From an uncultured virus (IMG/VR IMGVR_UViG_3300010370_000033) (taxonomy: Duplodnaviria; Heunggongvirae; Uroviricota; Caudoviricetes), in IMG/VR virus record IMGVR_UViG_3300010370_000033: 20,000 nucleotides of DNA; one strand, 5' to 3'. The notes under the pieces were generated by a model, which was given only the letters and a program-made list of their open reading frames with translations, was not told where the DNA came from and did no database searches. The translations under genes were made by a program, and so were the position numbers. Below, piece after piece: positions 400 to 18,898 of this stretch (positions are counted from its first letter, which is position 1; each line of letters begins with the position of its first letter).

Positions 400-459
400 A
401 GAATACCAAAGTTCTTGTATAAATACAAGGGTGTTTGTGCCAGTTCACCATCTGTCCAT
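400..459 (-). promoter_or_regulatory. Early promoter module 1 (palindrome 436-459, -35 TTGTAT, -10 TATTCT)
   Basis: TGTGCCAGTT-CACC-ATCTGTCCAT; 17-bp spacer; 30 bp from palindrome to -10. Confidence 0.8.
418..425 (+). promoter_or_regulatory. Possible T4-type late promoter TATAAATA
   Basis: Exact TATAAATA on the + strand inside the hairpin of module 1; may be chance in AT-rich DNA. Confidence 0.3.
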
Positions 460-618
460 TCGGGACAGGTCTTCAATATAGGCATTTACTTTCTCTGCTG
501 GCTCTAGATCAAATAGCTGTCGCCAGTTGATCTGATGAGGATTAAAGTCAGGAAATGCTGTGATTTCTAGGGTGATTCTATACCTTTCCTTAGTGGCGGA
601 CTGATAAGAAACTGACAT
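445..618 (-). CDS. Hypothetical protein, 57 aa (MSVSYQSATKERYRITLEITAFPDFNPHQINWRQLFDLEPAEKVNAYIEDLSRMDRW)
   Basis: Manual translation; below the ORF-track cutoff; directly downstream of a consensus promoter. Confidence 0.8.
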   Translation of the reverse strand: MSVSYQSATKERYRITLEITAFPDFNPHQINWRQLFDLEPAEKVNAYIEDLSRMDRW

Positions 619-645
619 TTTGAGTTCTGGGGTGAAACTTTGTGT

Positions 646-674
646 ATCTTAGGCGATCTTAGGGGATTTGTCAA
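646..674 (-). promoter_or_regulatory. Sigma70-type promoter TTGACA-N17-TAAGAT
   Basis: Perfect -35, 17-bp spacer, 28 nt upstream of the ATG at 618. Confidence 0.85.
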
Positions 675-765
675 GGGGTGTCGGGAGTTATATTTTGGGT
701 CTGGTGGGGTTTTTATGTGGGGCGCGTGTTATTTTGAGTTCTTAAGTGTTGGCAATCTAAGATCA

Positions 766-937
766 CAATAAGAATTGGCATTTACTAGCATTTACTAGCA
801 TTTACTAGCATTTACTAAGGTTTGCTCAATAAGATCTGACATTTTCCCAATAAGATCACCATAAGAAATAGCTTTTACTAAGGTTTCCTCAATAAGAACT
901 AAGATTTCTCAATAATATCAACTTTTTCTCAATAAGA
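766..937. repeat. Phased CAATAAGA repeats (iteron-like)
   Basis: Copies at 766, 827, 848, 890, 910 (CAATAATA) and 930; spacings 61, 21, 42, 20, 20. Confidence 0.8.
778..817. repeat. Tandem repeat 4 x GCATTTACTA
   Basis: Four exact 10-bp units. Confidence 0.95.
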
Positions 938-1025
938 TACTTCTTTCATTCCGATTTATCCTTATAAACGACTACTTTTTGTTCTACCTTTCCTACATAA
1001 AAATAGAGAAAGTAAAACTCCTACT

Positions 1026-1523
1026 ATGATAGATGCACCACATAAAGAGGTTTGGAGAATCAAAGGATTTGAAACCTTTACAAATTACTTTATTGATGTA
1101 AATGGTAATGTATATTCTACCAAGTATAAGAACCTTCGCAAACTTAGACCATATTGGGCTAACAACAAAGAGAACCCATATTGGAGAGTTACTCTATGCG
1201 ATAAAAATGGTAATCTAAGAAAGTTTTATATTCATCAACTGATGCGTGCTGCATTCATTCCAGAAGAAATGCAGGGACGTTATGTATTTGCTGGAAATAA
1301 GAATCGTAAAGATAATTCACTTCGCAATCTCACTCAAGAATATGAACTCAATGAAGATGTTCGCAATGAGATTAAGTTAATACATCAGGCTTGTATTGAG
1401 AAAGGATTGAATGTTTCTGATTACTCTGGTTTTGTGAATGAAGTGATGAGTGAGATGTTAGAAGAATATGTAAATCGTAAAGGATTGAAGAAGATATTGT
1501 ATAGACTGAAGAATGAGCAATAA
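1026..1523 (+). CDS. NUMOD4-domain protein with degenerate HNH motif and helical C-terminal extension
   Basis: EVWRIKGFE...Y.IDVNGNVYS (NUMOD4), then Y.RVTL...IHQLM..AF and N.N..DN...NL; the usual V[N/D]H reads VFA. Confidence 0.75.
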   Translation: MIDAPHKEVWRIKGFETFTNYFIDVNGNVYSTKYKNLRKLRPYWANNKENPYWRVTLCDKNGNLRKFYIHQLMRAAFIPEEMQGRYVFAGNKNRKDNSLRNLTQEYELNEDVRNEIKLIHQACIEKGLNVSDYSGFVNEVMSEMLEEYVNRKGLKKILYRLKNEQ

Positions 1524-1556
1524 AAAAGAGAGCATGTTTTAGTCGCTCTCTTTTTT
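1522..1556. terminator. Bidirectional terminator between convergent genes
   Basis: AAAAAAGAGAGC-N11-GCTCTCTTTTTT. Confidence 0.85.
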
Positions 1557-2013
1557 ATTGCATTTTTGATTTGAAGTATGAGATAATCAGATTTTCATCA
1601 ATATTAGGATTCTTTCTCCCTGAGTTGTTGAGTATTGTTGTATGCCAGGGACTATTGTCTTCTGTTGCTAATCTTGAAAGTTGGGTATCAGAATAAGAAC
1701 CATAGATTTCTTGAATTCTCAATAGAAGTGGAATTCTAGGATCTTGTTCTGAAATTGTAGGAGGTGATCTTAGAAGTTCTGAAAGTGGGAATTTGATTGA
1801 ACTGCTTCCATATTCTTTAGCAGCATTGTAGATAGTAGGAAATATTGGTCCCCAAGGAAATGCCGATACAAACTCATCAGTGAGTGGTTGATTGTATAAG
1901 GCAAGGCACCAACAATGAGAAAAATAAGTGAGTCTCTGAAGTTTGATGACTGTTGAATTTGGATTTTTAGCAAGAAACCAATTTGCAACTGCTAAAGATG
2001 AGAGATATTTCAT
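1555..2013 (-). CDS. Panacea domain (DUF4065, SocA/GepA-like antitoxin) protein
   Basis: VANWFL...KLQRLTYF...L..E...AFPWGP..P.IY...YG.YS..QLS.L....SPW...I....I..YF matches DUF4065 motifs. Confidence 0.85.
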   Translation of the reverse strand: MKYLSSLAVANWFLAKNPNSTVIKLQRLTYFSHCWCLALYNQPLTDEFVSAFPWGPIFPTIYNAAKEYGSSSIKFPLSELLRSPPTISEQDPRIPLLLRIQEIYGSYSDTQLSRLATEDNSPWHTTILNNSGRKNPNIDENLIISYFKSKMQ

Positions 2014-2310
2014 TTAATTTTCAAACTCTTTTTTCAATCGTTCGTATTCAATTCTTCGCGCTTCTTTTTGTTGATTTTCTCGTTCAATTCGGACAGCATA
2101 TTCTTTATCATTTTCCTTGCGATACTTAATTGCTCTAAGAACTATTGTAGCATCATCGCAGTAGGGTTCATATTCTTTCTGCAATTCAACTTTTGAATAT
2201 CCTTGAGAACGAAGATGCTTGAGTTTATGAATCAAGTCCTCAATAGGTTCAGTACACCAAATTCCACGAAGAACTGATGTGTATTCGGTTACTTGTTTGC
2301 GATCAGTCAT
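2014..2310 (-). CDS. Hypothetical phage protein with charged C-terminal coiled coil
   Basis: ORF abutting neighbours; R.END.EY..R...YERLKKEF tail. Confidence 0.8.
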   Translation of the reverse strand: MTDRKQVTEYTSVLRGIWCTEPIEDLIHKLKHLRSQGYSKVELQKEYEPYCDDATIVLRAIKYRKENDKEYAVRIERENQQKEARRIEYERLKKEFEN

Positions 2311-2480: not shown

Positions 2481-2684
2481 TCAGAAGTCAGTTTGAAAAT
2501 AAGATGAATTGTATGTTTCATCCCGATCAGAAGGAAGATTCAATCGCTTTTGAAGATGATTGATTCCTGAGACCTTATAGTCTTCTTCTTTGAGATCGGA
2601 AAGTAAATTAGTAATTTGTTTCTTTTCGTTTTGTGTCTTTGGTGTGCGAAAATAAGAATTGTGTTTGCGATAGGTGCGAGACAT
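2481..2684 (-). CDS. Hypothetical basic protein
   Basis: MSRTYRK...FRTPKTQNE ORF, 1-nt overlap with upstream gene. Confidence 0.8.
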   Translation of the reverse strand: MSRTYRKHNSYFRTPKTQNEKKQITNLLSDLKEEDYKVSGINHLQKRLNLPSDRDETYNSSYFQTDF

Positions 2685-3088
2685 CAGGTGTAATTATCAA
2701 GAAAATAATCTCGAAGAATTTCCATAGATTCAGAATCCAATTCATCAAGAAGAGATTGAATCTTATTCATTTTATTCTCTTGTTCTTTCTTTCGTTTTTC
2801 TTTTTCAACTTTTGTATAATACTCACAAGTGTATTGTCCACCATAATCATCTCCGTGAGGATAATGATTACGAAGAAAACTATTTTCTGAAAGTCCTACA
2901 ACTTCTTCATACGCTTGAATATCAACGTGAGATTCAGCCTCAGAAGTGTTCCGAATGAAACTACTCACAATATCGGAATAGTTTCCATAAACAACACGTT
3001 CAGCATCATTATAATTTTTTGCTACAACTGGAATCTCAATGGTTGTGGTAACGAGAAAGAGTGAAAGCTCGTCGGAATAAGAAGACAT
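2684..3088 (-). CDS. Hypothetical protein (likely paralog of 11677..12024)
   Basis: LF.VT......V.AK...DA and TC.E-like motifs shared. Confidence 0.8.
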   Translation of the reverse strand: MSSYSDELSLFLVTTTIEIPVVAKNYNDAERVVYGNYSDIVSSFIRNTSEAESHVDIQAYEEVVGLSENSFLRNHYPHGDDYGGQYTCEYYTKVEKEKRKKEQENKMNKIQSLLDELDSESMEILRDYFLDNYT

Positions 3089-3113: not shown

Positions 3114-3476
3114 TCACAGTTGAGATTCAATCAGATCTGCGATTTCATCAAATGAAAGATTCTCAAAATCATTCAAATCGGAGATTTGTTTCTTTCTATA
3201 TCCAGTATCAATAGTGGGATTAAGCTCCTTAAGATCCGCCCATTCAATGACTTCTTGAGTCAGAACTTCACCAGCATCTCCGTTTTTAGAAGGAATAAAA
3301 TAATCAAACTGTCCGTTACCATCAATCCATTCTTGATTAGTCTCTTTCAGATAAAGATCACAAAGAACTCCAAGACAACAGAAATGATTGCAGTCGTCAC
3401 GAAGTTGATAACGTCCTTGAGAATACTCTCCATTGCGAAGAGCATTTAACCACTTTTGCTTGATTTCGGATTTCAT
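3114..3476 (-). CDS. Hypothetical protein, FCCLGVL family (paralog of 6122..6520)
   Basis: KQKW..ALR.GEYSQ...FCCLGVL.DLYLKETNQ.W...LND....F..IA.LI..QL. Confidence 0.9.
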   Translation of the reverse strand: MKSEIKQKWLNALRNGEYSQGRYQLRDDCNHFCCLGVLCDLYLKETNQEWIDGNGQFDYFIPSKNGDAGEVLTQEVIEWADLKELNPTIDTGYRKKQISDLNDFENLSFDEIADLIESQL

Positions 3477-3502: not shown

Positions 3503-3562
3503 AGAATAACCGGGCTCTTGGAGGAATTCAAGAGCCCGTGTGACAGTGATTAGAGTGTCACA
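3503..3562 (-). promoter_or_regulatory. Early promoter module 2 (palindrome 3539-3562; TTGAAT/TATTCT; hairpin 3511-3538)
   Basis: TGTGACAGT-GATTAG-AGTGTCACA; 10-bp perfect inverted repeat over the -35. Confidence 0.9.
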
Positions 3563-3840
3563 TCAAAAGAGTACACTTGTCCGCGAGAGCGAATCTGAAA
3601 AATGGAGTTTACATTAAATGAACGCCAGGCCCCCCAACCACGCTCTTTTGCAATAGAGAAATCGCGAACGCGAATGAGATTTGGATTGTCTGTATTGGGA
3701 CCGAAACCTTTCAGTTCTTTACGATCTTTTGGATTAAAGACAATCGTACGCTTCTCTCCATTCTTTTTGATGAATTTTACAGAAACAATGGTGCTTCCTT
3801 CTTCTTGAAGAAAGTTGCGAATCAGAGTTGCTTTGCTCAT
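3550..3840 (-). CDS. WYL_2/DUF2693-like SH3/Sm beta-barrel protein
   Basis: V.F.KKNGEKR...D.......WRSF motif; start moved to ATG 3840 downstream of the promoter. Confidence 0.65.
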   Translation of the reverse strand: MSKATLIRNFLQEEGSTIVSVKFIKKNGEKRTIVFNPKDRKELKGFGPNTDNPNLIRVRDFSIAKERGWGAWRSFNVNSIFQIRSRGQVYSFDVTL

Positions 3841-3864: not shown

Positions 3865-3924
3865 AGTATGGCAGGGCATTAGAGGAGTTTCAAGTGCCCG
3901 TGTGACAGTTTCAGATCTGTCTAC
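3865..3924 (-). promoter_or_regulatory. Early promoter module 3 (palindrome 3901-3924; TTGAAA/CATACT)
   Basis: TGTGACAGT-TTCAGA-TCTGTCTAC. Confidence 0.85.
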
Positions 3925-4307: not shown

Positions 4308-4367
4308 AGAATAACAGAGCACCAGAGGAGTTTCTAGTGCCCTTGTGCCAGTTGTCAGGGTGTCACA
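4308..4367 (-). promoter_or_regulatory. Early promoter module 4 (palindrome 4344-4367; TAGAAA/TATTCT)
   Basis: TGTGCCAGT-TGTCAG-GGTGTCACA. Confidence 0.85.
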
Positions 4368-4618
4368 AGACGCTTTTTAGCATCACGAACTTCATCATCA
4401 ATACAAGTTCCAATTTGTTCGTAAATCCAGTCATTCTCTTCAATTTCATTGAGAACTTCTTCTACAATTTCATCAGAAAGTGAAATTGGATCAAAGTTTT
4501 CATCAAGTTCAATGACATCCTCTTTTGTGAAGATGAATGCTGCTACTGGAGAATTTTCTCCTTGTTGCTGAATCAGACGCTCAACGGATTCCTTAAGCTG
4601 TTGAAGTGTGCGAGCCAT
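4355..4618 (-). CDS. Hypothetical acidic protein
   Basis: ORF track; stop inside palindrome 4. Confidence 0.85.
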   Translation of the reverse strand: MARTLQQLKESVERLIQQQGENSPVAAFIFTKEDVIELDENFDPISLSDEIVEEVLNEIEENDWIYEQIGTCIDDEVRDAKKRLVTP

Positions 4619-4624
4619 TTGATT

Positions 4625-4804
4625 TTAGAAGCGAATGATGGGATGATTGTTGTCAAGAACTTGACAATCTTCAGTCGCGAAGACAAGTTCTATGCTAGCT
4701 TGATGAAACTCATCATTTTCATAAGAATCCCAGACACAAACATCTTGATTCAGTTGTTCTTCATTCAGTTTTTGAAGTTGTTGCAGAAGTTCTTTGTAAG
4801 TCAT
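4625..4804 (-). CDS. Hypothetical protein, 59 aa (MTYKELLQQLQKL...)
   Basis: Start moved to ATG 4804 after conserved leader GTTCACCACCGAACTCCA. Confidence 0.8.
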   Translation of the reverse strand: MTYKELLQQLQKLNEEQLNQDVCVWDSYENDEFHQASIELVFATEDCQVLDNNHPIIRF

Positions 4805-4828
4805 TGGAGTTCGGTGGTGAACAATGTA

Positions 4829-4887
4829 AGAATAGCGTGGATTTATGAACCTGTATGTGCTCTTGTGCCAGTTCAGACTTTGGCACA
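4829..4887 (-). promoter_or_regulatory. Early promoter module 5 (palindrome 4864-4887; -10 TATTCT, weak -35)
   Basis: TGTGCCAGT-TCAGAC-TTTGGCACA; 29 bp to -10. Confidence 0.85.
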
Positions 4888-5550: not shown

Positions 5551-5610
5551 AAGATACTGAAGAATCGGAAATAAGTCTAGGGTGATTGTGCCAGTTACAA
5601 AATTGGCTTT
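5551..5610 (-). promoter_or_regulatory. Early promoter module 6 (palindrome 5587-5610; TAGACT/TATCTT)
   Basis: TGTGCCAGT-TACAAA-ATTGGCTTT. Confidence 0.8.
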
Positions 5611-5783: not shown

Positions 5784-5810
5784 AAAAAAAGAAGCCCATT
5801 TAGGGCTTCT
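5784..5810 (-). terminator. Rho-independent terminator
   Basis: Minus strand AGAAGCCC-TAAAT-GGGCTTCT-TTTTTT. Confidence 0.85.
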
Positions 5811-5934
5811 GAGAGTTAATGTTATCCAGAACTGTGATGATCTCTTGATTGGGAGTCAGGTAGTCTAGTTGAACTACCGTAGGAGAAATCTGAAACTTTC
5901 CAACAAGAACAGAAGCGAGAAGAATTTCAATCAT
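5800..5934 (-). CDS. Small hypothetical protein, 44 aa (MIEILLASVLVGKFQISP...)
   Basis: Manual translation; ATGA overlap with upstream gene; hydrophobic N-terminus. Confidence 0.7.
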   Translation of the reverse strand: MIEILLASVLVGKFQISPTVVQLDYLTPNQEIITVLDNINSQKP

Positions 5935-6125
5935 ACATCACGAATAATAAGTTTTTTATGAGACTTGGAAGAATCAGTGAAGTCAACGATATCCTCTACA
6001 AGAATTCTCACTTGTTGTTTTTTGTCCCAATCATAATCTTGAAACTCAAGTGGAGTATCTCCTCCATATTCTATTACAACTTGAGTGAGAATGGTAATCA
6101 GTTCTTGAACAGTTGTGGGATTCAT
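5931..6125 (-). CDS. Hypothetical protein
   Basis: ORF with ATGA overlaps. Confidence 0.75.
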   Translation of the reverse strand: MNPTTVQELITILTQVVIEYGGDTPLEFQDYDWDKKQQVRILVEDIVDFTDSSKSHKKLIIRDV

Positions 6126-6520
6126 AGTTGCGCTTGAATTAGTTCTGCAATGGACCCAAAATTGTAGCCGTGGTCATTAAGTTCGGAGAGTTCTGTTGAG
6201 AGATATTCATCACAATCAGACTCTTCATCAAAATCACCATTTTCAGTCATCACTTCAGGACAATTTGTATTCAGACCCGCCCAATCACTTACTGATTTTG
6301 GAAGAAAATCATCTGTTTCTTCAAAGGTATAATAATCATCAGATGTAATATCACCAGTTTTTTCGTGAAACTCCCACTGTTGATTTGTTTCTTTTAGATA
6401 AAGATCCGTGAGAACTCCAAGACAACAGAATCCGTCAGGTGTGTGAAGTTTTCCTTCTGTTTGAGAGTACTCTCCACTGCGAAGAGCCTCAATCCATTTT
6501 TGTTTGATTTCGGGTTTCAT
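6122..6520 (-). CDS. Hypothetical protein, FCCLGVL family (paralog of 3114..3476)
   Basis: Start moved to MKPEIKQKW by alignment with the paralog. Confidence 0.9.
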   Translation of the reverse strand: MKPEIKQKWIEALRSGEYSQTEGKLHTPDGFCCLGVLTDLYLKETNQQWEFHEKTGDITSDDYYTFEETDDFLPKSVSDWAGLNTNCPEVMTENGDFDEESDCDEYLSTELSELNDHGYNFGSIAELIQAQL

Positions 6521-6560
6521 TTTTTTGAAATAATAAAGATCATTCAAACTAAAGTTACAC

Positions 6561-6863
6561 TCATTTGTGACTCTGTGCAATGGAGAATGCTTCATCAAAA
6601 GACTTCACATCTTCTGCAACACAAGACTCCAGAAAAGAACCATCAGGCTGTTTTCCTTTATGAATCCAAACATTGAAGGAATCATAAGCGATTCCGGCAA
6701 TATAAGTACCCTCTCCAATTTGTTCACTAGGTCCGCGACGAGTGCAGTGTTTAATCTTGATGTTTTGATTCTTGGAAAGAGTATAAACATCAAAGGATGA
6801 TGTTTTCATCGTGCGAACACAGAACTCATTAGAGAGATCGTCGCCAATTTCAAAGAGAGTCAT
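6561..6863 (-). CDS. Hypothetical protein
   Basis: ATG directly after promoter module 7. Confidence 0.8.
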   Translation of the reverse strand: MTLFEIGDDLSNEFCVRTMKTSSFDVYTLSKNQNIKIKHCTRRGPSEQIGEGTYIAGIAYDSFNVWIHKGKQPDGSFLESCVAEDVKSFDEAFSIAQSHK

Positions 6864-6886
6864 TGTTCTTGGTTTGGAACATTGTA

Positions 6887-6946
6887 AGAATAACCGGGCT
6901 CTCAGAGTAAATCAAGAGCCCGTGTGCCACTTGAGGAATTGTCAGT
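6887..6946 (-). promoter_or_regulatory. Early promoter module 7 (palindrome 6923-6946; TTGATT/TATTCT; hairpin 6895-6922)
   Basis: TGTGCCACT-TGAGGA-ATTGTCAGT; same CGGGCTCT/AGAGCCCG stem as module 2. Confidence 0.88.
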
Positions 6947-7243: not shown

Positions 7244-7269
7244 ATTGAAACAAATGTAAAGGAACAATT

Positions 7270-7297: not shown

Positions 7298-7303
7298 AGA
7301 AAT

Positions 7304-7770: not shown

Positions 7771-7773
7771 TGT

Positions 7774-7998: not shown

Positions 7999-8058
7999 AG
8001 TGTGACAGAGAATCGGGTGAGTTTCAAGCGATGTTGTGACAGTTACGAAACCGTCACA
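7999..8058 (-). promoter_or_regulatory. Early promoter module 8 (palindrome 8035-8058; TTGAAA/CACACT)
   Basis: TGTGACAGT-TACGAA-ACCGTCACA. Confidence 0.88.
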
Positions 8059-8489: not shown

Positions 8490-8549
8490 AGTGTGACAGA
8501 GAATCGGGTGAGTTTCAATGGAGTCTGTGACACTCAGTCAACTGTCACA
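8490..8549 (-). promoter_or_regulatory. Early promoter module 9 (palindrome 8526-8549; TTGAAA/CACACT)
   Basis: TGTGACACT-CAGTCA-ACTGTCACA; 41 bp identical to module 8. Confidence 0.9.
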
Positions 8550-9304: not shown

Positions 9305-9364
9305 AGAATACGGCAGTTGAAGCGTGGTGTCTATGAGTCTTGTGACGGTTCGTCAACTGGCACA
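9305..9364 (-). promoter_or_regulatory. Early promoter module 10 (palindrome 9341-9364; TAGACA/TATTCT)
   Basis: TGTGACGGT-TCGTCA-ACTGGCACA. Confidence 0.88.
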
Positions 9365-10089: not shown

Positions 10090-10149
10090 AATATAAGGCA
10101 TGAAACGGATGCTGTCTCATGCCCCTGTGCCAGTTCTCAATCGGGAACA
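10090..10149 (-). promoter_or_regulatory. Early promoter module 11 (palindrome 10126-10149, distal arm degenerate; GAGACA/TATATT)
   Basis: TGTGCCAGT-TCTCAA-TCGGGAACA; GGCATGA/TCATGCC stem. Confidence 0.8.
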
Positions 10150-10925: not shown

Positions 10926-10985
10926 AGTATAGGGCATGAAGTGGGTGCTGTCTCATGCCCTTGTGACAGTACCTCAAGTGGACTC
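10926..10985 (-). promoter_or_regulatory. Early promoter module 12 (palindrome 10962-10985; GAGACA/TATACT)
   Basis: TGTGACAGT-ACCTCA-AGTGGACTC; 9-bp stem 10931-10961. Confidence 0.88.
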
Positions 10986-11363: not shown

Positions 11364-11423
11364 AGTATAGGGCATGAAGTGGGTGCTGTCTCATGCCATT
11401 GTGCCACTTCAGAAACCGAACAT
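11364..11423 (-). promoter_or_regulatory. Early promoter module 13 (palindrome 11400-11423, distal arm degenerate; GAGACA/TATACT)
   Basis: TGTGCCACT-TCAGAA-ACCGAACAT; 36 bp identical to module 12. Confidence 0.85.
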
Positions 11424-12024: not shown

Positions 12025-12046
12025 AATGAATTGAATGAACAAATAA

Positions 12047-12105
12047 AGATTAACACGACACTAGAGGTGAGTCTAATGTCGTATGACAGTGAATCAAATG
12101 GACCA
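12047..12105 (-). promoter_or_regulatory. Early promoter module 14 (palindrome 12082-12105; TAGACT/TAATCT)
   Basis: TATGACAGT-GAATCA-AATGGACCA; ACGACA/TGTCGT stem. Confidence 0.8.
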
Positions 12106-12378: not shown

Positions 12379-12384
12379 TTCAGT

Positions 12385-12591
12385 TCAATTCATTGCGAGA
12401 ACAAGATTTGCAACCCTTTCTTCGGGAATCATTTCCTTCAGTTTTTCAGATACTTTCTCAAACTGATATGCAATTTTGAAGTAGTAATCTGCGAGATGAA
12501 AATCTTGAGAATCAAATGCAGCATTACCTTTTGAAGTGAGAGCGGAAACTACGTCCATCACTTCACCAGAAGTCAATGAAATTTGAGTCAT
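12385..12591 (-). CDS. Hypothetical protein
   Basis: Start at ATG 12591 (MTQISL). Confidence 0.8.
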   Translation of the reverse strand: MTQISLTSGEVMDVVSALTSKGNAAFDSQDFHLADYYFKIAYQFEKVSEKLKEMIPEERVANLVLAMN

Positions 12592-12613
12592 AAGAATTGG
12601 AATCAACGAAGTC

Positions 12614-12673
12614 AGTGTAGAGCAAACGAGAAGTCTATGGGGAAGTCAGTAGGCCAGTTTTTCGTGTGTCACA
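12614..12673 (-). promoter_or_regulatory. Early promoter module 15 (palindrome 12650-12673; -10 TACACT, no clear -35)
   Basis: TAGGCCAGT-TTTTCG-TGTGTCACA, 30 bp from the -10. Confidence 0.7.
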
Positions 12674-12798
12674 TATGAGTCCCATTGAAAATCATCGGGA
12701 AGTTTTCCTGTTGCAGCAGCAAGACAAGTCGCAATCACTTCCATTTCTTCTCCAGTCTCTTCGTTGAGAAAGATGAAAGACTTAGGAGTCATTTTCAT
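12646..12798 (-). CDS. Small hypothetical protein, 50 aa
   Basis: Manual translation MKMTPKSFIFLNEETGEEMEV...YVTHEKLAY. Confidence 0.7.
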   Translation of the reverse strand: MKMTPKSFIFLNEETGEEMEVIATCLAAATGKLPDDFQWDSYVTHEKLAY

Positions 12799-12914
12799 TT
12801 GAATTTCCTCTTGATGCAGTTCAGAGATTGTTTGCGAGACTTAAGTTTGTTTTTACACAAGCCTTTAGTCTTTTTTTGTTTTCCTGAGTTTTTTTGCCAA
12901 TTTGGTAAGTTCAC
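12795..12914 (-). CDS. Small very basic protein, 39 aa (MNLPNWQKNSGKQKK...)
   Basis: GTG start with GAGG RBS after module 16; ATGA overlap. Confidence 0.7.
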   Translation of the reverse strand: MNLPNWQKNSGKQKKTKGLCKNKLKSRKQSLNCIKRKFK

Positions 12915-12940
12915 TTGAACCTCGTTTGCTCCACTTCCAT

Positions 12941-13000
12941 ACTATTACATAGGAGAGATAGAGGTTCAAGAGGTCTTGTGCCAATTTCTCAAGTGTCTTA
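12941..13000 (-). promoter_or_regulatory. Early promoter module 16 (palindrome 12977-13000; TTGAAC, atypical -10)
   Basis: TGTGCCAAT-TTCTCA-AGTGTCTTA. Confidence 0.8.
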
Positions 13001-13459
13001 TGTATTCCGAATCGCTGGAGTTTCGCAATTATCAAGTGCCCAACGCATCCAGAAGTCCAACCACATCAGACGAGCAAGATGTGGATCGTGTGTAATTTCA
13101 TCAACACTATCGCTCCAATTACCAAAACCAGGAGGTTTCGTTGCAGTCTTACGATATTCTTCAAGAGCATTGTGAACTGTTGCATATTGTTCTTCAGTAA
13201 TCATTACCGTTCCAGGATGTTGACTGATAAGACCCTCATATTTGTGATAGAACAAATTAACAAGACCAGTTGTTTCACAAAAATCAGACCACCCAGTATA
13301 ACTTGGATGACGACCATTTGAGTTTCCAGTCATCTGATCGCAAGGAAATGTGGGCGCATCATCACTGGTAGCACTTTCCACAATCCAGCAGGCATAAAGT
13401 TCATCATCATCTTTACTGAAGAAAGGAATTGCGTTTCCGATTTTGATTGAATAGCCCAT
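12998..13459 (-). CDS. Hypothetical protein, 153 aa
   Basis: Single-gene cassette flanked by identical 22-bp sites. Confidence 0.9.
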   Translation of the reverse strand: MGYSIKIGNAIPFFSKDDDELYACWIVESATSDDAPTFPCDQMTGNSNGRHPSYTGWSDFCETTGLVNLFYHKYEGLISQHPGTVMITEEQYATVHNALEEYRKTATKPPGFGNWSDSVDEITHDPHLARLMWLDFWMRWALDNCETPAIRNT

Positions 13460-13483
13460 TTTGGTGTGCTTGATTGCTTTGTT

Positions 13484-13543
13484 ATTGTACTACAAGGACT
13501 TCAAGTCTTCTCGTGTTTTTGTGCCAATTTCTCAAGTGTCACA
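13484..13543 (-). promoter_or_regulatory. Early promoter module 17 (palindrome 13520-13543; -10 TACAAT)
   Basis: TGTGCCAAT-TTCTCA-AGTGTCACA. Confidence 0.85.
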
Positions 13544-13718
13544 TCTCAGGTAATTTAGCTTTTGATCTTGTTTTTTTGTGTTCCGCAATATACTTTCGCG
13601 CAGAGGTTTCGGTTCTACAGACTTTCTCTAATTGCCCGCCTTGATGAATAATGACATATCCCTTTTTACCGTACGGAACCGCGCAATATTCTCCTTTATT
13701 TACCAAAAATCCTTCCAT
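13539..13718 (-). CDS. Hypothetical basic protein, 59 aa (MEGFLVNKGEYCAVPYGKKGYVIIHQG...)
   Basis: Manual translation; TGA in the GTGAC half-site. Confidence 0.8.
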   Translation of the reverse strand: MEGFLVNKGEYCAVPYGKKGYVIIHQGGQLEKVCRTETSARKYIAEHKKTRSKAKLPEM

Positions 13719-13719
13719 A

Positions 13720-13755
13720 AGAGTGTGCTAAGAAAGAGGTATCTTAGCACACTCT
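13720..13755. repeat. Perfect 14-bp inverted repeat
   Basis: AGAGTGTGCTAAGA-N8-TCTTAGCACACTCT. Confidence 0.9.
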
Positions 13756-13758
13756 GGC

Positions 13759-14937
13759 TCATTTTTCAATCACACAATCCATTAGATCTCCTCGTTCAAA
13801 TACAGTTTCAACCACTGTATTTACTGATTTCTCAGTTGCAATTCCAGTCTTAGAATACACAGGAACCACACACAATCCGAAAAGTTTTGATGGATCTCCT
13901 TTACGCACAATTCTTCCAACGGTTTGAACCATTTCAATGGTATTCATATTCCGAAGAAAGATACAACAGTCTAAATTTCCACAATCCAATCCTTCACTCA
14001 TTATGGATCTGTGAATCAAAACAAACTTCTTATCTGGAATCTCATTCCATTCTTTCAAAGTCTCAAGAAACTTATGGCGATTCACTCGTTTTCCATTCAC
14101 GACAGCTCCAGTCTTACTTGTAATATAAAGATAAGAATATCCAAGATTCTCAAGTTCTTCAATAAAGTTAGTTTGAGAAATCAGATTCGTAAGTTGTTTT
14201 GTTGTTTTTACACAGATTAGAATCTTACTTTTTTGAATGTCCTCAAGAGTATTCAAAACATTTCTTTTATCTCGTTCTGCTGTGATTTCGTTATTTTTTA
14301 GAATCTCAAATTGCTTACTTTGAACCTTAGGAGAAAGAATATGACCACTTGCAATCAGTTCTGGTACAGTCACGCGACAAATGATTTCTCCATAAACCTC
14401 CACATCATTCATTCCAGGTTTGGCAATCGTATTTGAAGTCTTACGAGTTGCTGTAAAGAAATAACAGCGTTCTGCATTTGCTGAAAAGTATTCTGTAGAA
14501 GGAAAGAAGTGCATTTTGGTACTATGATGCGCTTCATCAAAATAGATCGTATTCACATCAATCTCAGACTCTTGAATCTGATGAAGAGAATGATATGTGG
14601 TGAAAATGAGTTTATGATAATTCTTATGAGTCTCCACCCATTTTTCAATTAGAAATGGATTCGTATGTGAATCATAGGGCGTTTCTCCCGTATGAACGTG
14701 CAGAATTCTCGCATTCACAATGAATTTTGTGAATTCAGAACAAAGTTGAGTTGTAAGAAGAATCTTGGGGGCAACTACTACAATGGTCTGAGAACTCTTC
14801 GTTTCAAGTTCTCGCATTGCATCTGCAATCATTGTAATTGTTTTTCCCGCACCAGTTGTTTTGATGATTTGTCCTTTTGAGTGCTGTTGCATCGCATTCA
14901 AAGCACGTTCTTGATACGGACGAAGTTGAAGCATCAT
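13759..14937 (-). CDS. Superfamily 2 DEAD/DEAH-box helicase (ResIII + Helicase_C type)
   Basis: LRPYQ (Q), TTGAGKT (I), DEAH (II), TAT (III), SEGLD (V), QTVGRIVR (VI). Confidence 0.95.
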   Translation of the reverse strand: MMLQLRPYQERALNAMQQHSKGQIIKTTGAGKTITMIADAMRELETKSSQTIVVVAPKILLTTQLCSEFTKFIVNARILHVHTGETPYDSHTNPFLIEKWVETHKNYHKLIFTTYHSLHQIQESEIDVNTIYFDEAHHSTKMHFFPSTEYFSANAERCYFFTATRKTSNTIAKPGMNDVEVYGEIICRVTVPELIASGHILSPKVQSKQFEILKNNEITAERDKRNVLNTLEDIQKSKILICVKTTKQLTNLISQTNFIEELENLGYSYLYITSKTGAVVNGKRVNRHKFLETLKEWNEIPDKKFVLIHRSIMSEGLDCGNLDCCIFLRNMNTIEMVQTVGRIVRKGDPSKLFGLCVVPVYSKTGIATEKSVNTVVETVFERGDLMDCVIEK

Positions 14938-14957
14938 TAAAAAAAATCAACGAAATA

Positions 14958-15017
14958 ATCTTAAACAAAAAATCCCCTTGTGTAAAGGGGATTTGTGCCA
15001 ATTCTTAAACTGTCACT
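14958..15017 (-). promoter_or_regulatory. Early promoter module 18 (palindrome 14994-15017; TTTACA/TAAGAT; hairpin 14970-14994)
   Basis: TGTGCCAAT-TCTTAA-ACTGTCACT; 10-bp stem followed by a T run, so it may double as a terminator. Confidence 0.88.
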
Positions 15018-15489
15018 TAGATTTTACTTGAGCTGGAGGAGAAGATGATGTGTTTAGAAACTTTTGAATCTCAACTCCTTTTACATATCCATAACCACCA
15101 AGAATCAGAGCGGTTGCAAGAACAATCATAAATTTACCGTGACCAGAATCATCTTGTCGTTCGGTATATTCTTCTACTGTCTGACCTACAATCAGTTGAG
15201 ATAACCAAGTACCAACTGTTCCACCAAAAAACATTGTAATGATTGGTGTATAAGTCATAAACAACCAGAAAAGAAAAGCAATTCCAATCATTCCTCCAAT
15301 TCCAGTGAAACTAATGTCATCACCAGAACTTGATGAACTTGAACTCACTTGACGTAAGTTCCTAATCGTAATTGGATTGTAAATGTGCTGAATTGCTTCT
15401 TTTGCGGTATAAGAAGCACCCGATTCAATTTCTACTGGAAAATAGCTTCCAGTATTTGTAACCTTAATCTCAGCTCGGTAGAGTGCCAT
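15013..15489 (-). CDS. Membrane protein (soluble N-domain, Ser linker, ~3 TM segments)
   Basis: Hydrophobic stretches after the poly-Ser. Confidence 0.88.
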   Translation of the reverse strand: MALYRAEIKVTNTGSYFPVEIESGASYTAKEAIQHIYNPITIRNLRQVSSSSSSSGDDISFTGIGGMIGIAFLFWLFMTYTPIITMFFGGTVGTWLSQLIVGQTVEEYTERQDDSGHGKFMIVLATALILGGYGYVKGVEIQKFLNTSSSPPAQVKSK

Positions 15490-15716
15490 CAGTTTTTGGA
15501 TTTAAGAGTCTTCAGTTGTTCAATCATCATTTGAAGTGTGGACCTTGTGTACCCTAGAGCATACGGAGCTGTTTTTTCTGTATTTTTGTAGAGCATTCGC
15601 TCTTTTTTAGAAAGATTGTAGTCAACTTTGTTGCAAACTGAAATCGCGGACTCAAGAGTTTCAATCATAGACTCAAGAGTTCCTTCAGAGATTGTGACTT
15701 GATTCATTGAATTCAA
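15489..15716 (-). CDS. Hypothetical protein
   Basis: ORF track; start may be at an internal ATG. Confidence 0.8.
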   Translation of the reverse strand: MNSMNQVTISEGTLESMIETLESAISVCNKVDYNLSKKERMLYKNTEKTAPYALGYTRSTLQMMIEQLKTLKSKN

Positions 15717-15916
15717 TACTCAGCAACAGCTTTAGCTTTAGACTTAGAAACTCGTCCTTCAGAATAGAGTTCTTTTACACGTTCTCGCCTGGTTGCAAGA
15801 AGCATTTCATATTCTTCTTGCTGACTTTCAGTGAAGTTAAAGTTTTGACGCCTCCAAGTGGCACGAAGTTCGTTTAGATGAGGCAGAACGTTGGGAATTT
15901 CAGACATTGTGTTCAC
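15713..15916 (-). CDS. Hypothetical protein
   Basis: ORF track; overlaps neighbours. Confidence 0.8.
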   Translation of the reverse strand: MNTMSEIPNVLPHLNELRATWRRQNFNFTESQQEEYEMLLATRRERVKELYSEGRVSKSKAKAVAEY

Positions 15917-16215: not shown

Positions 16216-16274
16216 AATTTAAGGGATGGAAGCGAAAAGGTCAAGAGTCAATGGACAGTTGAGAAAGTGTCACT
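16216..16274 (-). promoter_or_regulatory. Early promoter module 19 (palindrome 16251-16274; TTGACC/TAAATT)
   Basis: ATGGACAGT-TGAGAA-AGTGTCACT. Confidence 0.85.
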
Positions 16275-16779
16275 CTTCACGAGTCATAATGGATTTAAGT
16301 CTAGCGAGATGTGCCGCTTCTTCTGCACCTTCTTTTCTTGATAGTTCAGAATGGACGTGTTTTCTATGTGAAGGACCAGATTTTGCTTGTTCTCTTGCCT
16401 TAAAAACATTAAATGGTTTTTGTCTCTCAAGAGGAGGTGGAATCTGCTCTAATTGAAGTTCTTCTGCTTGTTGTTCGGCTTCTTTTCTTTTTCTTTCTGC
16501 TTCTTGTCTTTGCTGTTCCTTTCTCTGCTGTTCTTGTTCTCTTTTTTGTCTTGCATCTTCCACTCTTTTTTGATATGATTGACTTAACTCATCGTGTCTT
16601 TCTTGTGCTCGTCTTTTATTTTCTAATGCTCTTCGGGTAAAATCATCAGCGGATGAGGAAGTTCTTTGCATAGCCTCTCGTCTTCTCGCAGCAAGTTTTT
16701 CTTCTGGGGAATTTAGATAAGCACGATATTGCTGAGCAAATGTGCTAGTGTCTTCTTGAAACTGCTGAAAGCTCTTCAT
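16270..16779 (-). CDS. Charged coiled-coil protein with T4-type capsid-targeting-like N-terminus (putative internal virion protein)
   Basis: MKSFQQFQE start; ATAAATA late promoter about 20 nt upstream. Confidence 0.7.
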   Translation of the reverse strand: MKSFQQFQEDTSTFAQQYRAYLNSPEEKLAARRREAMQRTSSSADDFTRRALENKRRAQERHDELSQSYQKRVEDARQKREQEQQRKEQQRQEAERKRKEAEQQAEELQLEQIPPPLERQKPFNVFKAREQAKSGPSHRKHVHSELSRKEGAEEAAHLARLKSIMTREE

Positions 16780-16799
16780 TTTAACTTACTTTTTTTGAT

Positions 16800-16817
16800 T
16801 ATTTATCCGTATAAATA
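16800..16817. promoter_or_regulatory. Back-to-back T4-type late promoters
   Basis: ATAAATA on minus (16800-16806) and TATAAATA on plus (16810-16817), each upstream of a divergent ORF. Confidence 0.8.
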
Positions 16818-16869
16818 AATCAGCCAACAATTAAGTTGGTTTTACACACAACACACCGGAGTAAAAACC

Positions 16870-17073
16870 ATGACACCTTATGAACTTCGTTTTGAAATCT
16901 TTAGACAAGCAGAACGTTTAGTAGAAACGCAATTTTCATCGGAAATGGAAATTGCTCAGCGATGGAATGACAATCTAGACAATACTATAAAAATGGACTA
17001 TCCAAAGTTTCCTTCATTTGAAGAAATCGAGAAATTAGCAAACAAAATTAATGAATTTGTGAGTTCAAAATAA
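16870..17073 (+). CDS. Hypothetical T4-like phage protein (MTPYELRFEIF...P.FPS...I...A..IN.FVS)
   Basis: Late promoter, GGAG RBS and downstream terminator. Confidence 0.9.
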   Translation: MTPYELRFEIFRQAERLVETQFSSEMEIAQRWNDNLDNTIKMDYPKFPSFEEIEKLANKINEFVSSK

Positions 17074-17093
17074 GATATAATAAAATATTTTAT

Positions 17094-17116
17094 GGAGGGG
17101 AATACCCTCCTTTTTT
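17094..17116 (+). terminator. Rho-independent terminator
   Basis: GGAGGG-GAATA-CCCTCC-TTTTTT. Confidence 0.85.
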
Positions 17117-17285
17117 ATATTTTTAGTTCTGAAATCAAAGAATAATTCTTACGATAAACTAGAAGTCTTGCTGGACTTCTAGTTTTTGCACTATCTAGGG
17201 AAATGACAAGATAATTATTGCAAACAAAATCAATAATTCCTTGCATTGAAAGATAAGAAACTTTCTTTCCCTCTTCAAACATCAT
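17115..17285 (-). CDS. Small hypothetical protein, 56 aa
   Basis: Manual translation MMFEEGKKVSYLSMQGIIDFVC...RLLVY. Confidence 0.7.
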   Translation of the reverse strand: MMFEEGKKVSYLSMQGIIDFVCNNYLVISLDSAKTRSPARLLVYRKNYSLISELKI

Positions 17286-17405: not shown

Positions 17406-17642
17406 TCAATCCAGAGTAAAGGTTTCTACGATACGAGACTCTTCATTTTCTAGAAGAGCAAAACGTGATGCTTTTAGAATGTTTTCACGAAGTTTTCCAT
17501 AATATTGGGTCCATTTTTCATTGTCCCATTCTGCAATTAGATCAAAACACTCTTCATCGTTTTCTGCGATTACAGTGAGCATTCCACCGTCCGAGAAACT
17601 AGCTGGAACGAAGAACTCTACGATATAAAGAAACTTTTGCAT
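17406..17642 (-). CDS. Hypothetical protein
   Basis: ORF track with GGAG RBS. Confidence 0.85.
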   Translation of the reverse strand: MQKFLYIVEFFVPASFSDGGMLTVIAENDEECFDLIAEWDNEKWTQYYGKLRENILKASRFALLENEESRIVETFTLD

Positions 17643-17657
17643 TAGACTCCTGAAATT

Positions 17658-17831
17658 TCAAGTGGTTTGTTCTTTTTGTTGTGTGTAGACTGAATCATAA
17701 AGATGATTGAGTAAATTCTGACAAAGTTCATATTCTTTGCCATCATAAAGAGTTTTGTACATTTGCCAATACCGAATGGAATTAAAAATCAGTTTTCGTT
17801 CTTCTGTGGTCACATAAATCGGTTCCTTCAT
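17658..17831 (-). CDS. Small hypothetical protein, 57 aa
   Basis: Manual translation MKEPIYVTTEERKLIFNSIRYWQM...; GGAGG RBS. Confidence 0.75.
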   Translation of the reverse strand: MKEPIYVTTEERKLIFNSIRYWQMYKTLYDGKEYELCQNLLNHLYDSVYTQQKEQTT

Positions 17832-17996
17832 TCACCCTCCTCGTTGACGAAGACTTTGAACCAGATAAGCAGTGAACCTCTCCATCATCTCTGGAATCAC
17901 TGTTTCTGGACGTTCACTAATTGCGTTCTTTAATGCAAACATTTCTTTCCATTGTTCTGATGAGAGATCTTCTTTTTTTCCTAGTGAATAAGTCAT
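17832..17996 (-). CDS. Small hypothetical protein, 54 aa
   Basis: Manual translation MTYSLGKKEDLSSEQWKEMFALKNAISERPETVIPEMMERFTAYLVQSL. Confidence 0.75.
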   Translation of the reverse strand: MTYSLGKKEDLSSEQWKEMFALKNAISERPETVIPEMMERFTAYLVQSLRQRGG

Positions 17997-18075
17997 AATT
18001 AGGTTTTAATGTTACAATAGTCTAACATATGTAGCTGAATTGTCAGCATTTCAACAAATATCATTGTAACATTTC

Positions 18076-18336
18076 TTAATTTTTATAAGAATTAAGAATT
18101 TTCAGAATCTTACGTTCGCAATCTGGAGGAAGAGTTCCTTTGTGATCCCCATTAGAAGAAAATGAGAAGGAATACACATCATCTTCTTCGTTCCAATATG
18201 AATTGTCTCGCCAATATTCATTTGGATCTTCTTGATGAAGAAACATTCCTTGATCCATATTTTTGTATTTTGTTTTTGTCACTTCATTGATTTGATTTTG
18301 AATCTTAAAGATTCGGTCAAGCAGTTCTTTAGTCAT
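18076..18336 (-). CDS. Hypothetical protein
   Basis: ORF track. Confidence 0.8.
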   Translation of the reverse strand: MTKELLDRIFKIQNQINEVTKTKYKNMDQGMFLHQEDPNEYWRDNSYWNEEDDVYSFSFSSNGDHKGTLPPDCERKILKILNSYKN

Positions 18337-18338
18337 TT

Positions 18339-18557
18339 TTAGAAGAATTTGAAGGTTCCGTTGTTGCCGTCTTTTGTTTGTTTATCCAACATATCCATTA
18401 GATTCTCAAATTTCTTCACTTGCTCAATTTCAGAAAGAATCTTAGAGAGCATAAAAATAATATTCGGAGATTCGTTAGAACTTGCTGATTTAATCGCAGC
18501 ACGAAGATGAGACTCTGATTCTAGGAGATGATCCAAAGTAGCAGAAGATAGTGCCAT
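18339..18557 (-). CDS. Hypothetical helical protein
   Basis: ORF track; TAATG overlap. Confidence 0.85.
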   Translation of the reverse strand: MALSSATLDHLLESESHLRAAIKSASSNESPNIIFMLSKILSEIEQVKKFENLMDMLDKQTKDGNNGTFKFF

Positions 18558-18826
18558 TAGTTTTTCTTTTTACGAGGTTTTCTTTTTGTGGTGACTTTAA
18601 CCTTTTTTGATGGTCTTGATGGTTCTGGTGTGGAAATTGGAGTTAGATCAATCCAATCATCTGGACGACGAAGAATGACCACTTTTTTCTTATTCAGTTT
18701 GTGTCGTTCCAAATGAGTTGTTAGATGATCTTCACAACTAAAAAAGGCCACGATTTTTCCCGATTTATCCTCATATTCTAAACGAATTGGAAATGAAGAA
18801 TATGGAAACATTGATGTGTCAATCAT
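18557..18826 (-). CDS. Hypothetical protein with basic tail
   Basis: First gene after module 20. Confidence 0.85.
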   Translation of the reverse strand: MIDTSMFPYSSFPIRLEYEDKSGKIVAFFSCEDHLTTHLERHKLNKKKVVILRRPDDWIDLTPISTPEPSRPSKKVKVTTKRKPRKKKN

Positions 18827-18838
18827 TCAAACAAAGTC

Positions 18839-18898
18839 ATTTTAACACTTTTATCTAGGTTATGCAAGTGGTGATGTGCCGGTTCGGGAAACGTCACA
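18839..18898 (-). promoter_or_regulatory. Early promoter module 20 (palindrome 18875-18898; TTGCAT/TAAAAT)
   Basis: TGTGCCGGT-TCGGGA-AACGTCACA. Confidence 0.85.

Follow-up and report, generated by a model that had tools for sequence, protein, structure and literature searches.

A repeated element known as the promoter early stem-loop (PeSL), which joins a sigma70-like early promoter to a terminator stem-loop, recurs among the small variable genes of T4-type phages (PMC4122927, PMC2839356). The portions of the two papers drawn on here describe PeSLs in the T4-type phages RB49/phi1, T4/PST and KVP40/nt-1 (Arbiol et al. 2010, PMC2839356; Comeau et al. 2014, PMC4122927), where they mark indels between close relatives and recombine via short homology, and the authors compared them with integrons (PMC2839356, PMC4122927). 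PeSLs in cyanophage S-PM2 were judged too sparse to matter in the cited part of Puxty et al. 2015 (PMC4503421). The present analysis concerns a stretch of 20,000 nt, given as one strand, of an uncultured virus (IMG/VR record IMGVR_UViG_3300010370_000033), referred to as the window. An earlier note on this DNA had drawn attention to 20 co-oriented 24-bp palindromes that divide it into cassettes, and had likened the arrangement to an integron array; the sites were followed over positions 436..18898. The verdict is that the cassette arrangement is already known from PeSLs, that the conserved operator-like dyad added to it is what differs, and that the array is not an integron analogue. It is considered probable, with moderate confidence, that each unit is a promoter-terminator cassette of PeSL type carrying an operator-like dyad, belonging to a freshwater cyanophage, and that the units are shuffled by homology.

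All 20 sites were recovered at the coordinates first reported, far above chance. On the coding strand, which is the minus strand, the consensus reads TGTGMCAGTT, four free bases and AACTGKCACA; the first arm lies on the side of the upstream gene (gene-side arm) and the second on the side of the promoter (promoter-side arm). When up to three mismatches were allowed, the consensus of the earlier note gave 27 strand-matches at 14 of the 20 starts, compared with 0.24 expected, and none of 200 shuffled sequences reached 27 matches. The six sites missed by that consensus (436, 3901, 10962, 11400, 12082 and 16251) keep either the promoter-side arm or the fixed downstream layout; their gene-side arm is degenerate, except at 16251, where the gene-side arm is good and the promoter-side arm degenerate. 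About 14 of the 20 sites are two-armed palindromes and 6 consist mainly of the promoter-side arm. The sequence AACTGKCACA, with at most one mismatch, occurs 22 times in the window (3.04 expected). These matches comprise 16 minus-strand arms of the sites, 5 mirror arms of symmetric sites and one match at 3112, which is probably due to chance. Neither the arm scan nor the consensus scan of the window revealed any site beyond the 20. Co-orientation is complete, as every site lies on the minus strand with its well-conserved arm facing the downstream minus-strand gene. Column counts also bear out the stronger conservation of the promoter-side arm, in which columns 16, 19 and 21 are invariant and columns 18, 22, 23 and 24 are conserved in 17-19 of the 20 sites, whereas the gene-side arm has a single invariant column, column 6, with columns 1-5 conserved in 12-16.

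The sequence that follows each site has a fixed layout: 7 nt, a -35-like hexamer, 17 nt, a -10-like TAnnnT, a TTGTTCA leader and the start codon. The -35-like forms are cTTGAa, tAGAC and GAGAC, and the -10 is mostly TATTCT or TATACT; judged by consensus only, both boxes stand at constant offsets behind all 20 sites. The site itself spans about -66 to -43 of the putative promoter. The start codon is mostly 56-62 nt past the site, and the leaders carry no visible Shine-Dalgarno-like sequence. A GC-rich hairpin begins just ahead of the -35 and reaches almost to the -10; it is strong (z <= -2.9) in 9 of the 20 units and moderate in 2 more. The window contains 26 terminator-like sites compared with 10.0 +/- 3.4 in shuffled sequences, six of which are unit hairpins, and the unit hairpin probably ends the transcript of the upstream gene. 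Whole units group into repeat families with similarity over up to 72-85 nt, and the 20 units are packed within 18.5 kb amid small open reading frames (ORFs). The earlier description of promoter-plus-gene cassettes holds for the promoters, since each unit has its own promoter-like sequence, but not for the gene content, which ranges from 1 to about 9 genes per unit; the inter-site units are short operons rather than single-gene cassettes. The sites are listed below, where positions are counted within the site and distances with a plus sign are nt past it.

436..459, minus strand: site 1, ATGGACAGATGGTGAACTGGCACA; promoter-side arm perfect, gene-side arm degenerate; upstream stop at position 13; -10 TATTCT at +30; start codon unusually distant, at +92 (gene 110-343).
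3539..3562, minus strand: site 2, two-armed palindrome with 0 mismatches; ATG at +62 (gene 3114-3476); promoter hairpin CGGGCTCTTG..CAAGAGCCCG (3511-3538) of -19.3 kcal/mol, z -6.0, terminator-like.
3901..3924, minus strand: site 3, promoter-side arm perfect, gene-side arm weak; upstream TAG at position 2; hairpin z -2.9; ATG at +60 (ORF 3550-3840), the longest ORF beginning at 3879.
4344..4367, minus strand: site 4, palindrome with 1 mismatch; a relative has a 520-bp deletion with one end here.
4864..4887, minus strand: site 5, palindrome; other end of the 520-bp deletion; ATG at +59.
5587..5610, minus strand: site 6, promoter-side arm perfect; -10-like TATCTT at +30; no upstream gene abuts it and a clear downstream ORF is lacking.
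6923..6946, minus strand: site 7, hairpin (6895-6922) nearly the same as that of site 2, -16.3 kcal/mol, z -4.3, terminator-like; repeat family D6, 88%; upstream TGA at position 3; joint endpoint at 6928.
8035..8058, minus strand: site 8, the best palindrome, with 9/9 arm pairs; stop TGA at position 3; unit 85% identical over 72 nt to that of 8526 (repeat family D2).
8526..8549, minus strand: site 9, palindrome with 0 mismatches; repeat family D2; ATG at +59.
9341..9364, minus strand: site 10, palindrome; the upstream gene reads through and stops 8 nt beyond (position 32); ATG at +60.
10126..10149, minus strand: site 11, promoter hairpin GGGGCATGAGAC..GTTTCATGCC of -16.8 kcal/mol, z -4.6, terminator-like; joint or loose ends at 10147 and 10149.
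10962..10985, minus strand: site 12, promoter-side arm only; about 44 bp of the promoter identical with that of 11400 (repeat family D8, 91%).
11400..11423, minus strand: site 13, promoter-side arm only; ATG at +62.
12082..12105, minus strand: site 14, degenerate (CACTGTCATA arm); promoter hairpin of -12.3 kcal/mol, z -5.1; joint endpoint at 12103.
12650..12673, minus strand: site 15, gene-side arm good, promoter-side arm weak; 3 mismatches; upstream stop 2 nt past the site.
12977..13000, minus strand: site 16, precedes the gene of a 39-aa basic peptide (12795-12914, phrog_3309); GTG at +62.
13520..13543, minus strand: site 17, palindrome with 0 mismatches; stop TGA at position 3; ATG at +60.
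14994..15017, minus strand: site 18, precedes the helicase gene 13759-14937; the promoter holds a hairpin of textbook terminator form, AATCCCCTT..AAGGGGATTTTTT.
16251..16274, minus strand: site 19, gene-side arm good, promoter-side arm degenerate; -35 TTGACC; stop TGA at position 3.
18875..18898, minus strand: site 20, 184 extra letters between its arms in relatives; stop TGA at position 3.

Two paralogous minus-strand genes of phrog_18067, 3114-3476 and 6122-6598, lie behind the near-identical units of sites 3539 and 6923, and contigs of relatives switch between these two units. Downstream of site 5587, as far as about 5440, the promoter-like sequence is followed only by a 14-codon mini-frame; this site may drive a non-coding RNA or a long leader.

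Gene gain and loss was followed by placing contigs of four metagenome runs, from relatives about 93-97% identical, on the window. The 54 endpoints scored are those listed, and 45 further joints and 272 further loose ends stand outside the count. Endpoints are enriched at the units: 12 of the 54 listed fall within 5 nt of a site, where 1.84 are expected (binomial p 2e-7), and 22 of the 54 listed fall within the unit formed by site, promoter and leader, where 5.3 are expected. A relative about 93% identical (run X5) joins 4341 to 4862, the exact loss of the unit between sites 4344 and 4864. The ends of this 520-bp deletion share only CTTGTGCCAGTT (12 identical bp, or 17 bp with one mismatch). 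Runs X3, X5 and X6 contain 184 extra letters between the arms of site 18875 (joint 18878 to 18894), and run X6 joins 10966 to 11405 inside the near-identical promoter of about 44 bp. Further endpoints at sites are 3534, 6928, 10149, 10971 and 12103, and loose ends occur at 4344 and 4367 (runs X2 and X3) and at 10147. The earlier note had proposed to test whether breakpoints among relatives fall in the 6-bp spacer. The central spacer contains none of the 12 endpoints linked to sites, which occupy the promoter-side arm, its immediate vicinity or the outer edges, a result limited by the contig data and by the ambiguity in letters that shared sequence creates.

Indels that involve no site were also seen, at 1527/2581, 9478/9701, 9923/10070 (three runs), 16475/17142 and 8885/8892 (with 230 additional letters). 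The proposal that the site is a junction for gain and loss is partly supported: endpoints are enriched at the units, but many indels do without it. A loss of 172 nt, 19617/19790, likewise without a site, corresponds to the collapse of a tandem paralogue pair. The pair is a duplication of a 59-aa gene (19613-19776 and 19785-19948; 81% identical, spacing 172), and two relatives are single-copy. The collapse of this site-free pair therefore points to general homology-driven exchange. Pairwise comparison of IMG/VR and JGI contigs gave no site-linked breakpoints to score. A spontaneous 9.5-kb laboratory deletion in S-PM2 (5,799-15,339) is described in the cited part of PMC4503421; its ends contain no site and share at most 7 identical bases. 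Homologues of the unit genes of the window occur in motif-rich regions of the cyanophages S-SKS1 and P-SSM2, and by a reading of coordinates some of those in S-SKS1 lie on the opposite side of the helicase gene, which fits modular shuffling.

As the earlier note had stated, the window contains no recombinase: none is found among the Pfam matches (29 + 37 ORFs) or the PHROGs matches (29 + 36 ORFs). The tyrosine and serine recombinase families PF00589 and PF00239 are likewise absent from all five complete motif-bearing cyanophages, whereas named control genomes match both families, which leaves no phage-encoded enzyme of either type among these genomes, though a recombinase of the host is possible.

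The observations on gene stops were reproduced in full. The upstream stop codon lies inside or overlaps the site in 17 of the 20 cases; at six sites (6923, 8035, 13520, 14994, 16251 and 18875) it is at the same offset, site position 3, as the TGA of TGTGACA. Two genes read through and stop 2 nt (12650) and 8 nt (9341) past the site, and 5587 is the only site without an abutting upstream gene. The other stops are at positions 10-14, in the spacer, at eight sites and at positions 0-2 at three. AACTGKCACA contains no TAA, TAG or TGA in any of its three frames, and the recurrent offset arises because the TGA of TGTGACA is the only stop that the gene-side arm offers. Among the 60 frames that enter the sites, 29 stop inside and the rest run 25 to >500 nt into the next unit, so that genes avoiding long overlaps end in the site (17/19). 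Hence the stop within the site needs no special mechanism, being explained by compaction together with the letters of the motif.

The window resembles PeSL loci in its many composite units, in which a sigma70-like promoter (by consensus) and an adjacent stem-loop (11/20) precede the next gene start, in their clustering amid small unknown genes, and in the indels and replacements between close relatives at the units, with exchange through short homology. It differs in that a sequence-conserved 24-bp dyad occupies the place of the AT-rich upstream region of PeSLs, and in that the stem-loop is inside the promoter around the -35 rather than upstream of it. The units also lack a visible Shine-Dalgarno sequence, although in most of them the start codon stands at a fixed distance, and the dyad is common to cyanophage families, unlike the PeSL stems, which vary from one phage pair to another. 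The PeSLs of RB49/phi1 were shown to form mini-circles, whereas the window is known from assembled contigs alone.

The likeness to integrons consists of co-oriented repeated sites that bound small gene units, ORFs that end in the site, and imperfect inverted repeats. However, no integrase was found in the window or in the five complete motif-bearing phages, and the units have promoters of their own whereas integron cassettes are promoterless and depend on a common promoter. The site is 24 bp long and conserved in sequence, unlike attC, a folded single strand of 57-141 nt that is conserved in structure; moreover, no endpoint falls in the spacer and the distance to the promoter is fixed. The integron-like, site-specific array that had been suggested is not supported by these findings, nor by the homology shared at the junctions.

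Two regulatory systems bear comparison with the dyad itself. The stoperators of mycobacteriophage L5 and the conserved inverted repeats of Streptomyces phage phiC31 are repressor sites. Like the sites of the window they are short protein sites present in tens of copies in one orientation, with very short intergenic spaces and overlapping stop or start codons. They are, however, lysogenic repressor sites of temperate phages whose readers are known, whereas the phages considered here are lytic-type cyanophages and the site has a fixed position upstream of a promoter. The middle promoters of T4 are also marked as a pre-replicative class by a phage-specific element at a fixed distance from the -10, and many units in P-SSM2 and S-PM2 resemble them in having no recognizable -35. 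The MotA box, 9 bp long and asymmetric, lies at -30 and is read by a monomer together with AsiA, whereas the element in the window is a dyad centered near -54. In the portion of PMC2984593 used here, T4-like cyanophages are described as lacking the T4 regulators alt, modA/B, motA and asiA.

The window contains about 60 small ORFs, nearly all on the minus strand, most of which have no known family in Pfam or PHROGs. A single gene is informative about the origin of the DNA:

13759..14937, minus strand: superfamily-2 helicase gene (Pfam ResIII, DEAD, Helicase_C; phrog_16).

Its homologues, 419 records in a search of 50,697 phage records, are all from cyanophages or marine viruses, and the closest is that of Synechococcus phage S-SKS1 (50.9% identity). 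The helicase is thus the sole window gene whose placement is informative, and it points to cyanophages. Since its relatives span the T4-like Kyanoviridae and the S-SKS1 siphovirus genus, it does not fix the morphotype. A near-identity nucleotide search of the whole window against the same records gave no match, and helicase scans of IMG/VR and JGI sequences gave no close relative besides the source contig (best 58% identity). The metagenome runs that contain near-identical or 93-97% similar DNA are labeled aquatic, freshwater or estuary, and the window is read here as part of an uncultured freshwater cyanophage.

The dyad is not confined to the window. Forward and reverse matches with at most three mismatches were counted in whole phage records and compared with a reversed-pattern control:

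S-SKS1: 11 forward and 13 reverse site matches; control 1 and 0.
P-SSM2: 18 forward and 15 reverse site matches; control 0 and 0.
S-T4: 11 forward and 9 reverse site matches; control 0 and 0.
Syn9: 6 forward and 7 reverse site matches; control 0 and 0.
S-PM2: 11 forward and 8 reverse site matches; control 0 and 0.
S-B05: 4 forward and 2 reverse site matches; control 5 and 1.
P-TIM68: 0 forward and 1 reverse site match; control 0 and 0.
SynMITS9220M01: 0 forward and 1 reverse site match; control 0 and 2.

The matches in S-B05, P-TIM68 and SynMITS9220M01 do not stand out from the control. In P-SSM2 and S-PM2 the spacing from the site to the -10, which is TATAAT-like, and from the site to the next start codon is the same as in the window, and where the -35 cannot be recognized a hairpin is found in its place. 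The sites of S-SKS1 cluster in a region of small genes, and the clustering in P-SSM2 and S-PM2 is similar. A helicase gene stands behind a site in both the window and S-PM2, and a phrog_459 gene stands behind a site in P-SSM2 and S-SKS1; the site class therefore includes large conserved genes and not only small unknown ORFs. Exact matches in IMG/VR amount to at least 170 loci, with 3-6 sites on many contigs, and 223 contexts taken from the listed loci show TTGA at +8 to +11 and T-A-n-n-n-T at +30 to +35. A 25-bp variant with one extra central base occurs on IMG/VR contig L018 (301-325, 674-698 and 1297-1321) and keeps the same -35 and -10 distances. Dense groups of 2-3 sites within 100-550 bp occur in P-SSM2 (66336-66614, a stretch without an annotated gene), S-PM2 (20116-20677) and S-SKS1 (150583-150677), the two copies in S-SKS1 forming a larger inverted repeat. 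The literature searches found no description of the dyad, their coverage not extending to the Syn9 and S-PM2 genome papers or the Syn9 transcriptome paper.

Bacterial genomes contain few comparable sites. In 185,579 species genomes the full palindrome was found at 24 loci, none titled as a picocyanobacterium. Two short contigs binned into bacterial metagenome-assembled genomes (L316 and L323; one titled Pirellulales, one unclassified) have both the complete dyad and the promoter layout of the phages, and probably represent cyanophage DNA that was mis-binned. Near-consensus sites in 401 cyanobacterial genomes occur almost only in large genomes, and small genomes (1.5-2.5 Mb) have about 6 one-strand matches compared with 3 in the control. 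The half-site was counted 28 times in five small cyanobacterial genomes and 26 times in the control, compared with 22 times in the 20-kb window. A host operator was considered as a lead because the palindrome is also present in Acidobacteria and some filamentous cyanobacteria, and was dropped as unrelated to the phage hosts. The Nostocales palindrome is downstream of purH, between convergent genes, and a recurrent near-match lies inside coding sequence. In Acidobacteriota a perfect 10-4-10 palindrome is present once per genome (L306-L309, L311, L314, L315, L317-L319 and L321), which suggests an unrelated local operator with the same letters.

The dyad offers a way into the timing of early and middle genes in T4-like cyanophages, as it stands at a fixed place upstream of about 10-20 promoters per genome and the same 24-bp duplex could serve to capture the factor. 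It is present in at least five cultured cyanophages of Prochlorococcus/Synechococcus and in many that are uncultured. The element also carries the notion of gene shuffling guided by promoters, known from PeSLs, over to cyanophages.

The variation between the arms distinguishes a site read as DNA from one read as RNA. Positions 5 and 20 are unpaired in 11 of the 20 window sites. Among the matches listed, 178 unique IMG/VR sites have the combinations CG (81), AG (46), CT (39) and AT (12) at these positions, with no positive association (odds ratio 0.54, p 0.11), and position 8 is a C opposite a fixed C in 101 of the 178 (57%). A folding energy of <= -6 kcal/mol is reached by only 7 of the 20 window sites, and folding is weak in the other 13, with a mean z of -1.3; no T-run follows the palindrome in the window. 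Because the arms do not covary, and because it is sequence that is conserved, with constant spacing to the -10, the most likely reading is that a dimeric protein recognizes the site as double-stranded DNA, as its operator. Its two-fold symmetry, independently varying half-sites and fixed promoter distance are those of a dimeric operator.

The proposed working of the unit is as follows. The dyad, at -66 to -43, would be the target of a sequence-specific dimer controlling the activation or timing of this class of promoters, and the GC-rich hairpin ending just before the -10 would terminate the transcript of the upstream gene. About 20 copies of the unit in 20 kb would offer patches of homology to the general recombination system of the phage, such that the units may be where small groups of genes are deleted, inserted or rearranged, in the manner of the PeSLs of T4-type phages. 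Packing of the genome up to an indispensable promoter-side arm would leave the gene stops in the gene-side arm and spacer. A more far-reaching form of this proposal is possible but doubtful. It holds that the dyad is the operator of an unrecognized factor, phage-encoded or virion-delivered, shared by the Kyanoviridae and S-SKS1-type phages, that it defines a pre-replicative class without MotA/AsiA or Alt, and that it serves as the preferred crossover by which promoter-gene units pass between unrelated cyanophages, because it comprises the longest run of letters shared by all units.

Several observations weigh against the cassette with an operator-like dyad. Six of the 20 sites amount to half-sites, which would not be expected of the operator of a dimer; the overlap of the gene-side arm with coding sequence tempers this. 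To our knowledge, a dyad center near -54 is not a classical activator position of the CRP or NtcA classes. A generic sigma70 scan shows no excess over chance in the window (59 matches, 59.2 expected) and picks out just 7 of the 20 unit promoters, and the promoter and terminator activities proposed for the units are drawn from consensus. The joints derive from k-mer contigs of metagenomes, in which endpoints of different runs are not independent, and that from 10966 to 11405 could be an assembly collapse, because its 44-bp repeat exceeds the word of the assembler, which is taken to be 31 letters. Finally, no cognate DNA-binding protein was found among the window ORFs or by profiling five motif-positive against three motif-negative genomes. 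The profiling left 2OG-Fe(II) oxygenase paralogues, the phrog_3309 39-aa basic peptide and a 43-aa ORF, none of which has a recognizable DNA-binding domain.

The phrog_3309 peptide (12795-12914 in the window), which carries an LPNWQ motif, is present in P-SSM2, S-PM2, Syn9 and S-SKS1, that is, in four of the five motif-positive phages, and was not found in the three motif-negative phages compared; with only eight genomes compared, it is a weak lead as a candidate nucleic-acid-binding partner. Other candidates for the reader were rejected. A 67-aa ORF (15713-15916) with a weak TrmB-like match has homologues in motif-negative phages, and ORF 2684-3088, with a weak PHROG match to a transcriptional regulator, has no phage homologue. 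The genes that recur behind sites are only the helicase and the phrog_459 'peptidase', neither of which is a regulator. As far as we know, the spacing or the letters of the site do not fit sigma54, CRP, NtcA or LexA boxes, and a phage-borne reader of the dyad looks more likely than a host regulon.

Contact with the host polymerase would require no separate reader. The arms would then be an analogue of the UP element, touched by the alpha C-terminal domains or another part of the polymerase. UP elements of E. coli and T4 early promoters lie in the region of -66 to -43 that the site spans, the promoter-side arm alone is kept in six sites, and in T4-type phages early genes are established to fire before any phage protein is made. 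Nonetheless, this explanation is considered unlikely. A general contact should also mark strong host promoters, whereas the half-site is not enriched in the five small cyanobacterial genomes (28 vs 26) and near-consensus sites are no commoner than by chance in small cyanobacterial genomes; a dimeric factor would better account for the two-fold symmetry and the 10-bp arms, and three related cyanophages lack the motif. A slightly lower probability is given to an RNA hairpin in the upstream transcript that acts as a terminator, 3'-end protector or processing site and stands ahead of the promoter only incidentally. The stability of 7 of the 20 sites (for example 8035, at -12.4 kcal/mol) and the near-perfect 10-bp stems of many P-SSM2 copies agree with it, as does the PeSL stem-loop, which sits just upstream of the promoter according to the cited part of PMC4122927. 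However, what is conserved across phages is sequence and not pairing, as the C-C opposition in 57% of the 178 sites and the lack of covariation show, 13 of the 20 sites fold weakly without a T-run, and another hairpin, GC-rich and followed by a T-rich tail, is already present in the promoter.

The core site of a tyrosine or serine recombinase, of the phage or of its host (for example Xer), with cassettes exchanged via the spacer as at attC, is a very unlikely explanation. It draws on the inverted arms around a short spacer, on the ORFs that end in the site, on the endpoint enrichment (12 of the 54 listed vs 1.84), and on the deletion that runs exactly from 4344 to 4864 with 12 bp shared and the insertion of 184 letters between the arms of 18875 in three relatives. 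On the other hand, the central spacer has 0 of the 12 endpoints, many indels and the laboratory deletion in S-PM2 are away from sites, PF00589 and PF00239 are missing from all five motif-bearing cyanophages and from the window, and a fixed distance to the promoter, kept in every phage, is needless for recombination. Least credible of all is a palindrome without function, conserved merely via duplication of units and gene conversion within the genome. Unit subfamilies with similarity over 72-85 nt exist and neighbors are often most alike (8035/8526, 10962/11400). However, the same 24 bp are common to phages whose helicases are at most 51% identical, from the Kyanoviridae to the S-SKS1 genus, whereas the flanking promoter, hairpin and leader sequences differ between those phages, and conservation within the window is much higher for the site than for the spacer that separates the -35 from the -10.

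Besides the helicase, the named domain or family matches in the window are a SocA/Panacea-domain protein and one HNH endonuclease. The former is a 152-aa protein (1555-2013, minus strand) with an antitoxin-type domain (Pfam E 4.6e-10) in an early-type phage region. The latter is the sole plus-strand gene (1026-1523), a homing-endonuclease-like ORF (phrog_59/959) opposed to the flow of transcription; it is flanked by a gene-poor stretch (620-1025), and one relative lacks the adjoining segment 1528-2580. Rfam and tRNA scans of the window gave no matches. About 330 nt of the coding strand (16780-17114) are without a gene and vary in relatives (joint 16475 to 17142, three runs); a terminator-like hairpin on the plus strand (17094-17110) lies within this stretch. 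The strongest hairpin outside the promoter units, with a 14-bp stem, is located between the helicase stop and the next gene (13720-13755) and is terminator-like on the plus strand.

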